A DNA stretch of 64,000 bases from positions 2,528,813 through 2,592,812 of the forward strand of contig CBDHCN010000002.1 in NCBI GenBank assembly GCA_965261185.1, read 5' to 3'. Source of the stretch: Candidatus Aldehydirespiratoraceae bacterium (GTDB taxonomy: Bacteria > Actinomycetota > Acidimicrobiia > Acidimicrobiales > Aldehydirespiratoraceae). Position 1 is the first letter of the stretch, and the number at the start of each line of letters is the position of its first letter. Below are positions 32,301 through 33,485 of this stretch, piece by piece. The notes beneath the pieces were generated by a model. That model searched no databases. It was not told the origin of the DNA and saw nothing but the letters and a program-made list of their open reading frames with translations. The position numbers and the translations under genes are program-made.

Positions 32301-33485
32301 AATCTCGGGCGTGCCCATCCACTTTGGCTTTCAGTTGGCTCGTGTACAGCCGCGGAGTCGCGGTCATATACAGCCGCTTGTCGGCCAGAACCTGGTCTGG
32401 ATCGTGGATCAGCGTGAACGCGCTGCCCTTCTTCTGCTCCTGGATACCGGTCGTGCGGTGGGCTTCGTCGCAAAGCACCAAATCAAACGCCGGCGCACCT
32501 TTGGCTTGAGCGTCAGCGACAAGCTTCAACGACTGATAGGTGCAAAACACCACAGTCATCGACTCGGGGTGGACTTCTTTGAGTTTGCCTGCGATCTGCT
32601 CGGGATCAGTGGTCACCGGCATCGCCAACTCAGCTATGTCGGCATCCTCGTCGTTGCGACCCGCACGAGTGTCAGAACAAATACCGACATAGCTGTGCGG
32701 GATCTCTAGGTCGCGTTGACTCGCCCACTCCCGCATCGTTTGGCCCATCAAAGCAATCGAGGGCACGAGGTACAAGACCCGCCCACCCGTACCGGCCGTC
32801 TTCTCAGCGATCCACAGCGACACCACCGATTTGCCGGTACCACAGGGAAGGATCAGCTTCCCGCGGTCGTGTTCCTTGAAAGCCGCAACGACCTTGCGGA
32901 CCGCTTCGGTTTGGAACGGATGCGGCTCATAGCGCACCGGCGAAAACTTGAGCCGTTCAGGGGCTGCTAGGAACTCCGACCAGTCAACCGGCCAGCTCTC
33001 AATATCGGCTCGGGACACAAGGTGACACTGAGGGGAGGTCTTGGACACCATCGTTTTGGCGTTCGTGGACAGCGACGAAGTGACCACCAGAACGCGGTGA
33101 GTGAACAGGTCAGCGCTCGACGCCGACAGGAACGAATCCACCGCGGCCTTGCCGACTTGGGACGTCTCGTTGAACTTGGTTTGAATCGCACACAACCCGC
33201 CGCCCCAGTCGTCTGTTTGTTCCGCTACGAGGTCGATTCCCACATCCCCGAGGTATCCATACGCCTCCCGATCCGGCCACTCCATCCAGCGCCACACGTT
33301 CTTGAACCGAGCCGGGCCATAAACGTCGGGATGGCGTCGAAAGGCGTACTGCATCAGCCGCTCAAATACACGGCCCCGTTCCTGGGAGGTCTCATACCGC
33401 TCGCGAAGCAGCCAGAAAAGCCCACCCCTCGCGAAATCGCCTACATCAACTGGTTCCGCGTCATTTTCAGGGGGGGGGGGGGCAT
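29083..33485 (-). CDS. Type ISP restriction-modification enzyme (Mrr/PD-(D/E)xK nuclease + SF2 DEAH helicase/translocase + N6-adenine methyltransferase). As sequenced, it is out of frame with its probable ATG and truncated before the TRD.
   Basis: Nuclease GDVGIDLVAEQ...AIQTKF. Helicase motif I LPCGTGKS and motif II LCDEAHRTTG. MTase motif I ILDPFTGTGTF and motif IV VANPPWSAGQ. The track ORF is 29083-33354, but the frame stays open upstream to the C13 tract and ATG 33485. Confidence 0.85.
29328..29369. repeat. (TC)21 dinucleotide microsatellite, (GA)21 on the coding strand, inside the Type ISP ORF
   Basis: 42 nt of perfect alternation, translated as (RE)n in the current frame. Confidence 0.95.
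33470..33482. repeat. G13 homopolymer (C13 on the coding strand) directly abutting ATG 33485-33483
   Basis: Counted directly: 1+10+2 G across blocks 33461-33490, with CAT at 33483-33485. Confidence 0.9.

Follow-up and report, generated by a model that had tools for sequence, protein, structure and literature searches.

A C tract directly after the probable start codon as a candidate ON/OFF switch of a split Type ISP-like restriction-modification gene in sponge-associated Acidimicrobiia

A Type ISP-like restriction-modification enzyme of sponge-associated Acidimicrobiia, probably Candidatus Aldehydirespiratoraceae, is likely governed by three hypermutable repeats, with an ON/OFF element at the 5' end of the gene and a cassette selector at its 3' end. 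The gene lies in a 64,000-nucleotide stretch of DNA (the window) in which a run of 13 C residues follows the probable start codon and places it out of frame with the enzyme. The reading of this tract as a slipped-strand ON/OFF switch is well supported at the level of sequence comparison, because the layout recurs among relatives, near-identical pairs of loci differ in tract length, interrupted tracts are in frame, and ordinary Type ISP loci lack the tract. The host, previously described as a high-GC actinobacterium, can be specified as a sponge-associated member of the Acidimicrobiia with 59.8% GC.

RESULTS

The start codon is separated from the enzyme frame by 13 C residues

Read directly on the minus strand, an ATG (33485-33483) is followed by exactly 13 C (33482-33470) and then by TGAAAATGACGCGG. 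At this tract length the frame reads ATG CCC CCC CCC CCC CTG AAA ATG ACG CGG AAC CAG TTG ATG TAG, a dead end of 14 sense codons whose stop occupies 33443-33441. Upstream of the main open reading frame (ORF) (29083..33354), its frame is open up to a TAA at 33498-33496; this stretch reads SRTDAPPPPENDAEPVDVGDFARGGLFWLLRERYETSQERGRVFERL-MQYAF and contains no in-frame ATG, GTG, or TTG between the tract and M33354. The ATG is joined to the enzyme only when the number of C residues, n, satisfies n mod 3 = 2 (n = 11, 14, 17). C13 thus has a repeat unit that is not a multiple of 3 and a frame-setting placement in an ORF, as contingency loci do. The preliminary description of this DNA had given the same positions for the ATG and the tract, the same 14-codon ORF, a frame without stops between M33354 and the tract, a stretch lacking in-frame ATG, GTG, and TTG codons, and restoration of the frame by 14 or 11 C; each of these points holds, and 17 C restores the frame as well.

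A C13 tract after an ATG far exceeds chance. The window contains only three homopolymers of at least 7 bases, namely, G13, G17 (29063-29079), and one G7, and C13 was matched in 0 of 100 dinucleotide-preserving shuffles. The chance expectation for an ATG followed by C8 is 0.01. Further, the tract is far above the background length of the genome, another mark of contingency loci. Both long homopolymers of the window and its sole long dinucleotide repeat, (GA)21 (29328-29369), fall within one gene, where the three tracts are 4.4 kb apart. The length of 13 is an assembly consensus and the true value could be 14, because long homopolymers are prone to assembly error.

The stretch upstream of M33354 extends the nuclease domain

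Homologue conservation, alignment to LlaBIII, and substitution pattern indicate that the stretch between the tract and M33354 is real coding sequence, in agreement with the earlier proposal that it extends the Mrr module and is not a leader. The extension is present in the homologues P0003, P0004, P0006, and P0010, among others, and in the alignment consensus. When N termini are aligned, homologues reach past the equivalent of M33354 with conserved sequence, and the in-frame relatives P0006 and P0010 are predicted as proteins beginning with MTPPPP. LlaBIII aligns here too: its residues 29 to 247 match residues 33 to 254 of the rebuilt protein, which places the ERGxxFExL block of the extension (LlaBIII 29 to 43) upstream of M33354. 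Indeed, without the extension the Mrr nuclease domain is incomplete. Against 11 tract-bearing relatives, differences in the extension fall mostly at third codon positions (118/94/219 by position), and its frame stays open in all tract-bearing loci. An internal start at M33354, which would yield a methylase lacking the nuclease, is unlikely; it would lose the conserved ERGxxFExL helix, and M33354 is not preceded by a Shine-Dalgarno-like sequence.

Tract length varies among related loci

A start codon followed directly by a C tract is found in at least 14 related sponge-symbiont loci; a count of those with ATG or ATGA immediately before the tract gives 12. At this same position across species, n is 8, 9, 10, 10, 12, 12, 13, 15, 15, 15, 16, 16, 17, and 19, all compared relatives being metagenome-assembled genomes of uncultured bacteria and all lengths assembly consensus values. 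Of the 14 loci whose start is clear, L079 and L161 included, three are in frame and 11 are out of frame, an excess of OFF that could come partly from miscalled lengths. The window locus (C13) and L079 (C15) are identical at 400 of 400 bases on each side of the tract, and L161 (C13, ON) and L003 (C9, OFF) have flanks that are 96 to 97% identical. Close genomes therefore differ in tract length with unchanged flanks, as expected of a contingency locus, on assembly consensus lengths. In two close relatives, L057 and L162, the tract is interrupted and locked in frame. As a control, 73 ordinary Type ISP loci were screened, and not one has a homopolymer of at least 8 bases near its 5' end. An exact-flank pattern search of JGI metagenome contigs for further alleles of the window locus gave no matches. 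[quoted passage not shown] The preliminary description had proposed a slipped-strand ON/OFF switch, and the recurrent layout, the range of n from 8 to 19, the two near-identical pairs, and the in-frame tracts of L057 and L162 all favor it.

The tract could instead be real but miscounted. With a true n of 14 (or 11), the gene would be intact and constitutive, its product would carry a short poly-proline N terminus, and homopolymer miscalls would account for the differing assemblies. All loci do come from metagenome assemblies, homopolymers of 13 to 19 bases are difficult on every platform, and the L079 contig has a coverage of only ~22x (by contig name). A conserved poly-proline tail would, however, hold its frame, whereas n ranges widely and most of the loci are out of frame. 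The usual miscall is one base, but the window locus and L079 differ by 2 nt and L161 and L003 by 4 nt, and tracts occur in short-read (Illumina-type; MEGAHIT, SPAdes) and long-read assemblies alike. The chromosomes of relatives resemble PacBio HiFi assemblies made from sponge metagenomes. The interrupted tracts lie exactly in frame, the pattern to be anticipated where frame is important and uninterrupted tracts are free to drift. Finally, the same genes bear other frame-shifting repeats whose function is independent of exact length. We give miscounting a small chance of being the whole explanation.

Slippage of RNA polymerase or ribosomes on long homopolymers is established in other bacteria and would allow a different account, in which transcriptional or translational slippage restores the frame in some products at any DNA length and holds a dangerous enzyme at a low dose. 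Consistent with this, frameshifted repeat-containing mod constructs are reported to be still partly active (bioRxiv 10.64898/2026.04.01.715767), and the OFF state of most assemblies would be tolerable if OFF were leaky. Slippage nevertheless leaves unexplained both the tract-length differences between near-identical genomes and the in-frame interrupted tracts. It is also compatible with switching at the DNA level, so it is not a true alternative, and as a replacement for the slipped-strand switch it has only a slim chance. Within that switch, slippage on C13 could yield some full-length protein in "OFF" genomes and make it leaky.

The gene encodes a split Type ISP-like enzyme

The gene had been taken for a single-polypeptide Type ISP enzyme. 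The Type ISP domains are all present, but not in a single chain. A Pfam search of the main ORF matched Mrr_cat_2, ResIII, Helicase_C, ISP_coupler, N6_Mtase, and positions 4 to 108 of Type_ISP_C. An Mrr-type PD-(D/E)xK nuclease domain is indicated by Mrr_cat_2 (E = 2.8e-25) and by the alignment to LlaBIII, including GIDLVAEQ...AIQxKF. An SF2 helicase-like ATPase follows (ResIII, DEAD, and Helicase_C matches; motifs PCGTGKS and DEAHRTTG in the translation), and then a coupler (ISP_coupler, E = 3e-29). A gamma-class N6-adenine methyltransferase and a Type ISP TRD are recognized by the N6_Mtase and Type_ISP_C matches and the motifs DPFTGTGTF and NPPW, and the TRD is alignable to LlaGI, LlaBIII, and DrdV. 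Positions 165 to 341 of Type_ISP_C, however, lie in an ORF of their own after a stop codon (Table 1). The same TRD split is seen in related sponge-symbiont loci, and in most relatives the C-terminal ORF begins directly beside the stop codon of the last cassette or overlaps with it. Such a two-chain TRD would have to fold around an inserted out-of-frame linker of 40 to 170 residues, a point against the proposed mechanism. With the last part of the TRD in this separate ORF, "split Type ISP-like enzyme" is the most fitting name for the gene product.

TABLE 1 Features of the locus by position in the window
Feature	Position	Strand	Basis or remark
Possible promoter: TTCACT (33522-33517), 18-nt spacer, TAAAGT (33498-33493)	33493..33522	-	Suggested by a weak match
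Start codon ATG, probable true start of the restriction-modification gene	33483..33485	-	Sequence and layout of relatives
C13 tract (G13 on the plus strand), putative frame switch	33470..33482	-	OFF at 13; ON at 11, 14, 17
Dead-end ORF, 14 codons and TAG, from present tract length	33441..33485	-	Direct sequence reading
N-terminal extension of Mrr-type nuclease domain (ENDAEPVDVGDFARGGLFWLLRERYETSQERGRVFERL)	33355..33469	-	In frame with main ORF; without its own start codon
Main ORF as now open, 1,423 aa: Mrr nuclease, SF2 ATPase, coupler, N6-adenine methyltransferase, first third of TRD	29083..33354	-	Ends in cassette 2
(GA)21, putative first selector repeat	29328..29369	-	Just after TRD Loop V, at LlaGI 1336-1342
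Cassette 1 (..TQNNRGHATLLATRLITDLNFLGPNQGGCRVIPRRRRS*)	29199..29315	-	Opened by one of the two alternative (GA)n frames; 95% identical to L008 cassette
Cassette 2 (..AGPSNMAIFGALATRLLPDLHLVGPGQQTRVLPRRTQ*)	29083..29196	-	Fused to enzyme in present (GA)21 frame
C17, putative second selector repeat	29063..29079	-	Reached only in third (GA)n frame
Cassette 3 (..LTQQLPFGIIATNHLFDLCATGRQTRCVPQKRS*)	28938..29039	-	
Cassette 4 (..TSTNNRSIFAALAATTMPDLSGCGTNQPTRAIPRRRS*)	28822..28935	-	
Cassette 5 (..SPSNRSVFAALATDTMADLHALDPAGRVMIRK*)	28718..28816	-	Stop 4 nt before next ORF
Separate ORF, 237 aa: remaining TRD core and guide, equivalent to LlaGI 1392-1564	28000..28713	-	Pfam Type_ISP_C 165-341, E = 8e-47

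Two internal repeats appear to select among five cassettes

The (GA)21 and C17 repeats had been regarded as further switching tracts. Judged from the frames they open, they appear instead to be cassette selectors and not off-switches, together forming a two-level frame selector among five alternative TRD Loop VI cassettes. The third (GA)n frame is open for ~95 codons, and C17 is positioned 4 nt beyond the current stop codon. The ~256 pass-through codons contain no stop; the background rate is 0.032 stops per codon. A rule of 2k+1 cassettes for k repeats, with all frame paths open and each ending in a different cassette, holds in 46 of 76 related loci, and the selector repeat units are 1, 2, 4, 5, or 10 nt long, never a multiple of 3. 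Differences among cassettes by codon position are 89/69/222, and codon changes comprise 193 synonymous and 116 nonsynonymous ones. Orthologous cassettes of other species are 80 to 95% identical, compared with 41 to 68% between cassettes inside the window.

Each cassette maps to LlaGI 1343 to 1380, a region that includes Loop VI and the base-reading residues H1368, G1372, and Q1373 (PMC4872093). The column equivalent to H1368 varies (H, A, N, C, S, K) beside an invariant D. Because each cassette encodes a TRD beta-hairpin and the base-reading Loop VI, cassette choice is predicted to change the recognized DNA sequence, at the base contacted by Loop VI (target position +3 in LlaGI numbering). An inversion-type specificity shufflon was also considered and rejected: the cassettes are all in direct orientation, the locus has no recombinase gene, and long inverted repeats are absent from 27900-29500.

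A gene that is out of frame at its start and has its TRD in pieces might also be a decaying pseudogene in a symbiont genome, with ordinary inactivating mutations at both ends, and the relative with IS110 insertions would fit such decay. The 1,423-residue frame, however, is free of internal stops and keeps its PCGTGKS, DEAH, NPPW, and Mrr motifs, and it breaks at simple repeats only. Substitutions are biased to third positions in the extension and in all five cassettes, and the layout is kept in dozens of species from several phyla. Decay is accordingly a very improbable explanation.

A possible promoter and leaderless start before the tract

The TAAAGT hexamer lies 7 nt before ATG 33485, and a TANNNT hexamer occurs 6 to 9 nt upstream of the ATG in related loci. 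A strict scan of 33300-34800 found no sigma-70 sites or terminators, and no Shine-Dalgarno sequence precedes ATG 33485. From the weak TTCACT-18-TAAAGT match and the recurring TANNNT hexamer, we infer that a leaderless mRNA may start at this ATG.

An XRE-type helix-turn-helix (HTH) gene (33513..34007) ends 27 nt before the ATG. Together with a 233-residue ORF, it lies upstream of the enzyme only in the window locus, L079, and L080; in L001, L003, and L161 the pair is found on the downstream side of the enzyme, and other loci lack it. The enzyme, the C-terminal ORF, the HTH gene, and the 233-residue ORF were also scanned against NCBIfam, with no informative match for any of them. The idea that the adjacent HTH gene encodes a controller (C) protein and that the tract region, including CTAAAGTCGC, is its operator, so that control is transcriptional and not a matter of frame, is scarcely credible and was rejected because the HTH gene is not a conserved neighbor: the stable upstream linkage of a C-protein-controlled system is not seen, and the tract is retained in loci without the gene.

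DISCUSSION

The observations on the window locus and its relatives are consistent with the following mechanism. Translation would begin with ATG 33485 of an mRNA that is probably leaderless, and the C tract would then set the frame. At n mod 3 = 2 (11, 14, 17), the product is predicted to be M-Pro(n/3)-ENDAEP..., with a complete Mrr domain, ATPase, coupler, methyltransferase, and TRD; the ERGxxFExL helix, which is conserved at the N terminus, is out of reach of every other start codon. With 13 C, translation would stop after 14 codons, and with 15 C, it would stop after 6. Because the nuclease, motor, and methylase share one chain, an out-of-frame tract would shut down restriction and modification together, and an OFF gene is expected to be inactive. 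Slipped-strand mispairing during replication would alter n, and a population would therefore contain both ON and OFF cells. In the ON state, the 3' repeats would determine which of the five pre-encoded cassettes joins the frame: (GA)n would lead to cassette 1, to cassette 2, or by read-through to C17, and C(n) at 29063-29079 to cassette 3, 4, or 5. The rest of the TRD would come from the separate ORF, which is probably translationally coupled.

On balance, we lean slightly toward a broader reading in which C13 serves as the ON/OFF element of a kind of phase-variable defense gene that has not been described before. One to four serial TRD repeats would act as a ternary "frame multiplexer" encoding 3, 5, 7, or 9 enzymes per gene, with a coupled second ORF, in a device common to sponge symbionts of several phyla. 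Each frame after a repeat would lead to a different Loop VI cassette or onward to the next repeat, giving the window locus five alternatives plus OFF. Besides Acidimicrobiia, the device would extend to metagenome-assembled genomes labeled Caldilineaceae, Dehalococcoidia, and Longimicrobiales.

A literature search found no description of phase-variable Type ISP enzymes, in line with the preliminary description, and none of phase-variable restriction-modification or homopolymeric tracts in sponge symbionts or of a serial-repeat cassette selector. Studies of repeat-driven phase variation of restriction-modification have dealt almost solely with Type I, III, and IIG systems and with a small number of host-adapted pathogens; the window locus would widen it to a Type ISP-like enzyme, to uncultured marine sponge symbionts, and to the Actinomycetota. 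Phage pressure and enrichment in defense genes are well known in sponge symbionts. If our reading is correct, clonal symbiont populations could change their restriction specificity stochastically and so meet the heavy phage load of a host that feeds by filtering. If the selector works, it would be a new, compact, recombinase-free route to diversify DNA-recognition specificity, as well as a natural TRD-loop-swap experiment in a family of enzymes that has withstood attempts to engineer its specificity (PMC4872093). Many database entries of such genes begin at an internal Met or end in an out-of-frame linker. Gene callers truncate or split these genes, and defense-system surveys therefore misread them.

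Among known systems, the lactococcal enzymes LlaGI and LlaBIII (PDB 5FFJ, 4XQK) share the domain order of the window enzyme (Mrr, SF2 ATPase, coupler, gamma-class N6-adenine methyltransferase, TRD) and are alignable to it throughout, and the base-reading loops of LlaGI map onto the window protein. They differ in being one unbroken chain without simple repeats, whereas the window locus has a C tract, five Loop VI cassettes, and the separate 237-residue ORF. The C tract, the TRD repeats and cassettes, and the split ORF are absent from ordinary Type ISP loci, and the frameshifts of Helicobacter pylori Type ISP genes are stated not to be caused by repeats. In the phasevarions of Type III mod and Type I hsdM/hsdS genes (PMC5909438, PMC7383803), a nontriplet coding repeat likewise toggles the frame of a methyltransferase, and tract lengths vary between close relatives as they do in the window family. 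Those, however, are multisubunit systems of host-adapted pathogens (Haemophilus, Neisseria, Helicobacter, Streptococcus, and Mycoplasma), while the window gene, which comes from an uncultured member of the Actinomycetota living in marine sponges as a symbiont, encodes a fused nuclease-motor-methylase and carries its tract directly after the start codon.

Cj0031, a Type IIG enzyme of Campylobacter jejuni (PMC4889913), is likewise a single-chain restriction-methylation-specificity enzyme toggled by a G/C homopolymer, in this case poly-G. Unlike the window enzyme, it lacks a helicase-like motor and an Mrr domain, and its one tract provides ON/OFF control only, with no alternative specificity segments. 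The Type I system NgoAV of Neisseria gonorrhoeae (PMC9577141) follows the same principle as the proposed selector, in that the terminal poly-G tract of hsdS1 shifts the frame and changes recognition rather than merely turning the system OFF. NgoAV has two states, a truncated HsdS1 or an HsdS1-HsdS2 fusion, compared with the 1 to 4 serial repeats, the 3, 5, 7, or 9 paralogous cassettes, and the independent 5' ON/OFF tract of the window family. Similarly, Type I hsdS shufflons (e.g., SpnD39III; surveyed in PMC7394358) hold several recognition modules per locus and choose among them stochastically. The shufflons do so with inverted repeats and a recombinase, whereas the window locus carries its cassettes in direct order on one strand and would choose among them by reading frame.

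A C tract following the probable start codon of the Type ISP gene

Direct reading of the minus strand bears out the preliminary description: the upstream ATG is followed immediately by exactly 13 C and then TGAAAATGACGCGG, and opens a 14-codon dead-end ORF. Upstream of the 1423-aa main ORF the enzyme frame is open as far as a TAA, running ...APPPPENDAEPVDVGDFARGGLFWLLRERYETSQERGRVFERL-MQYAF..., and a search of the extension (the stretch between the tract and the first internal ATG, M33354) found no in-frame ATG, GTG, or TTG, again as described. The upstream ATG joins this frame only at tract lengths of n mod 3 = 2, which adds n = 17 to the lengths of 11 and 14 named initially. 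Chance does not account for the tract. Across the 64 kb of the window (59.8% GC), just three homopolymers reach 7 bases or more, C13 occurred in none of 100 dinucleotide-preserving shuffles, and the expected count of ATG followed by C8 is 0.01. The same gene holds a second long homopolymer, C17, along with (GA)21, the sole long dinucleotide repeat of the window.

Elsewhere in the window, a 229-aa ORF with a C terminus resembling a transglycosylase or Rpf-like domain contains 8.7 copies of a perfect 18-nt repeat, which encode (TTAAPA)n; because this repeat is in frame, a change in copy number alters linker length and leaves the frame unaffected. A 50-nt tandem repeat is present in 3 copies with 97% matches.

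Several lines of evidence indicate that the extension is coding sequence, as its first reading had suggested. Homologous database proteins with starts called further upstream share it (e.g., P0003, MPLPSPDDSDQVDVGEFARGGLFWLLRERYETSQERGRVFERVMQYAF), and the consensus of a 40-protein alignment, L...L.ER...PQ.RG..FERLMQ.AF, covers it. Residue 29 of LlaBIII, a solved Type ISP enzyme, aligns with residue 33 of the rebuilt protein, placing a conserved block, ERGxxFExL, upstream of the internal Met; 28 residues precede this block in LlaBIII versus 32 in the rebuilt window protein. Comparison of the extension with 11 relatives gives 118/94/219 nucleotide differences at codon positions 1/2/3. Starting at M33354 would leave the nuclease domain without its first conserved helix, and no Shine-Dalgarno-like sequence was found ahead of that codon.

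Nor does a Shine-Dalgarno sequence precede the upstream ATG. The hexamer TAAAGT ends 7 nt upstream of it, with TTCACT 18 nt farther upstream, and related loci carry a TANNNT hexamer 6 to 9 nt ahead of the ATG; a strict consensus promoter scan reported no promoter. Leaderless mRNAs are common in Actinomycetota, and the hexamers make this gene a candidate for one. An XRE-type HTH gene ends 27 nt upstream of the ATG but is probably not a controller protein, because its linkage to the enzyme is not conserved. It overlaps a 233-aa ORF without a family match, and the two move as a pair, lying upstream of the enzyme in the window and downstream in other genomes (L001, L003, L161); they may form an independent two-gene module.

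Pfam matches in the main ORF comprise Mrr_cat_2, ResIII/DEAD/Helicase_C, ISP_coupler, N6_Mtase, and the first third of Type_ISP_C (profile positions 4 to 108). The last half of Type_ISP_C (positions 165 to 341), the end of the target recognition part (TRD), lies in a separate ORF, so the initial description of a single-polypeptide enzyme does not strictly hold. The nearest proteins are up to 92% identical; nearly all of them, like nearly all of the 78 related genomic loci, derive from metagenome-assembled genomes (MAGs) of sponge symbionts. The related genomes include the Acidimicrobiia Ca. Aldehydirespiratoraceae, Ca. Poriferisocius, Ca. Poriferisodalis, and Ca. Spongiisociaceae and a few MAGs labelled Caldilineaceae, Dehalococcoidia, and Longimicrobiales. 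Gene calls for database entries P0001, P0002, P0005, P0007, and P0008 place the start no earlier than the internal Met and carry the C terminus through an out-of-frame linker, so the public protein record of this family is systematically truncated or chimeric.

Positions of features in the window and in related loci
Feature	Position	Strand	Remark
Upstream ATG	33485-33483	minus	
C13 tract	33482-33470	minus	
Stop TAG of 14-codon ORF	33443-33441	minus	
Upstream TAA in enzyme frame	33498-33496	minus	
Extension	33355-33469	minus	
Main ORF	29083-33354	minus	1423 aa
(GA)21	29369-29328	minus	
C17	29079-29063	minus	
Two-level selector, (GA)21 + C17 over five cassettes	28718-29369	minus	
Cassettes 1-5	28718-29315	minus	
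Array region not alignable with L079	~28767-29383		
Second TRD ORF	28000-28713	minus	237 aa; start 4 nt past cassette 5 stop
DEDDh exonuclease gene	27045-28016	minus	overlaps TRD ORF end by 17 nt
HTH gene/233-aa ORF pair	33513-34648	minus	
18-nt repeat	54578-54734		
50-nt tandem repeat	1137-1286		
IS110-family regions, L080	1380-2870, 7553-8773, 9040-10260		
G run, L040	5066-5076		G11
G run, L049	5833-5849		G17
G run, L056	9468-9494		G27

Downstream repeats and alternative TRD cassettes

Five paralogous cassettes, alternative C-terminal segments of the TRD, fill the part of Type_ISP_C missing between the two Pfam matches. In the current (GA)21 frame a 40-residue linker connects the enzyme to cassette 2 (ILIAGPSNMAIFGALATRLLPDLHLVGPGQQTRVLPRRTQ); in the second frame, cassette 1 (..NNRGHATLLATRLITDLNFLGPNQGGCRVIPRRRRS) is reached directly. 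The third stays open for ~95 codons into C17, beyond which the three frames lead to cassettes 3, 4, and 5. All of the ~256 pass-through codons in the window are free of stops, compared with 0.032 stops per codon in off-frames of the main ORF, which points to selection. The two internal repeats had been taken to add to the switching; they do lie in the same gene, with cassette selection by frame as their probable role.

A cassette HMM was built and used to search the related loci, which carry 3, 5, or 7 cassettes each. Arrays alternate a repeat with two cassettes, and the final repeat is followed by three. Repeat units are 1, 2, 4, 5, or 10 nt, never multiples of three. At 46 of 76 loci, k repeats accompany 2k+1 cassettes, and all simulated frame paths are open, each ending in a different cassette. 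In ordinary Type ISP genes, which lack repeats, the TRD past the same block is a single continuous stretch of ~278 residues.

Each window cassette has an 80 to 95% identical counterpart in other species and is 41 to 68% identical to its neighbors. Differences by codon position (89/69/222) and the 193 synonymous versus 116 nonsynonymous codon changes show all five cassettes to be under purifying selection, each in its own frame. The selector arrays of the window ((GA)21, C17, and five cassettes) and of related locus L079 (G16 and three cassettes) cannot be aligned, though the genomes are 98% identical over 9 kb, so whole arrays are exchanged or remodelled within a species.

The cassette aligns with residues 1343 to 1380 of LlaGI, another solved Type ISP enzyme (numbering checked on N1327, R1329, H1368, G1372, and Q1373). 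As described by Kulkarni et al. 2016 (PMC4872093), this segment comprises a structural beta-hairpin (1347 to 1358) and Loop VI (1365 to 1374), whose residues H1368, G1372, and Q1373 (N1360 in LlaBIII) read target position +3. The H1368-equivalent residues of the five window cassettes are N, H, C, S, and H; across 346 cassettes this position holds H, A, N, C, S, K, or a gap, and 344 of them keep the adjoining Asp. The constant part includes Loop V, immediately ahead of (GA)21. By alignment, the second ORF corresponds to LlaGI 1392 to 1564, the rest of the core and the guide.

Cassette stops overlap the next start (ATGA, TTGA, GTGA) in 146 of 270 cases, and the last stop overlaps (often as ATGA) or abuts the second-ORF start in most loci. 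These overlaps suggest a chain of translational coupling down to the second ORF. Beyond that ORF, a gene for a DnaQ-like DEDDh exonuclease with a BRCT domain follows in the window and also lies 3' of the enzyme in L030, L064, L068, and L079.

Tract length among relatives and the proposed switch

The 5' C tract is most likely a translational switch of the whole fused enzyme (ON, ATG in frame; OFF, out of frame), OFF as assembled. In the ON state, (GA)n and the second C tract would choose the fused Loop VI cassette and with it, we predict, the DNA sequence methylated and restricted; the window would thus encode five enzyme variants plus OFF. That a split TRD with long linkers folds and acts is likewise a prediction. 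Slipped-strand mispairing is the expected driver of length change; Actinomycetota are not known to have MutS/MutL, a lack that should promote indels in tracts of this kind. The OFF state may be leaky through RNA or ribosome slippage, which is compatible with DNA-level switching.

The whole analysis is based on assemblies of uncultured bacteria, and tract lengths are assembly consensus calls; for the window alone, a pure length artefact (true n = 14) is possible but unlikely. Such an artefact leaves unexplained the range of lengths in related species, where ATG (or ATGA) with C(n) immediately after it recurs at the same place with n = 8, 9, 10, 10, 12, 12, 15, 15, 15, 16, 16, 17, and 19; tracts occur in short-read (MEGAHIT and SPAdes contig names) and long-read assemblies alike. 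Among loci with a clear start codon, L079 and L161 included, 3 of 14 are in frame: L007 (C19), L006 (C15), and L161 (C13). Also unexplained are differences of 2 nt and 4 nt within pairs of near-identical loci. The window has C13 versus C15 in L079, a contig from another assembly, with 400 bases on either side 100% identical; C15 there gives ATG(CCC)5TGA, OFF like the window. L161 reads ATGA-C13-GGAG (ON, product MTPPPPEKK), and L003, with flanks 96 to 97% identical, reads ATGA-C9-AGAG (OFF). Finally, an artefact does not account for interrupted tracts that are exactly in frame, as in L057, the closest species-level relative (GTGCCACTCCCCCC), and L162 (ATGCCCCTGCCTTCCCCT). Both the intact 1423-aa frame and purifying selection run counter to pseudogene decay.

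In a control set of 73 ordinary Type ISP loci from unrelated metagenomes, no homopolymer of at least 8 bases lay within -200 to +30 of the N-terminal block. Conserved position, drifting length, preserved coding potential, and occasional locked variants form the pattern expected of a contingency locus. The slipped-strand ON/OFF architecture initially proposed thus gains support from the recurring start-C(n) layout, the near-identical pairs differing in length, and the in-frame interrupted tracts.

In L080, a 92%-identical relative, an IS110-family element sits exactly within the former 5' tract, and two further copies lie just 3' of the gene, in the expected place of the array of repeats and cassettes. 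L040, L049, and L056, from a more distant clade of sponge symbionts, have G runs ahead of the homologous gene; these end ~4 to 10 nt upstream of the ORF start, past an in-frame stop, and would be repeats in an untranslated or promoter region, outside the coding sequence.

Comparison with known systems

The frameshifts of Helicobacter pylori Type ISP genes are explicitly not repeat-associated, and our literature search turned up no account of repeat-driven switching either in a Type ISP enzyme, in line with the preliminary description, or in sponge symbionts. Such switching is known in Type III mod and Type I hsdM/hsdS genes (PMC5909438, PMC7383803) and in the Type IIG enzyme Cj0031 (PMC4889913), and in NgoAV a poly-G tract toggles two specificities (PMC9577141). 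Inversion shufflons switch among multiple specificity alleles (PMC7394358), whereas the window locus has neither inverted repeats nor a recombinase. On this basis the proposed 5' switch extends known repeat-driven restriction-modification switching, and the serial frame selector is its most novel aspect.
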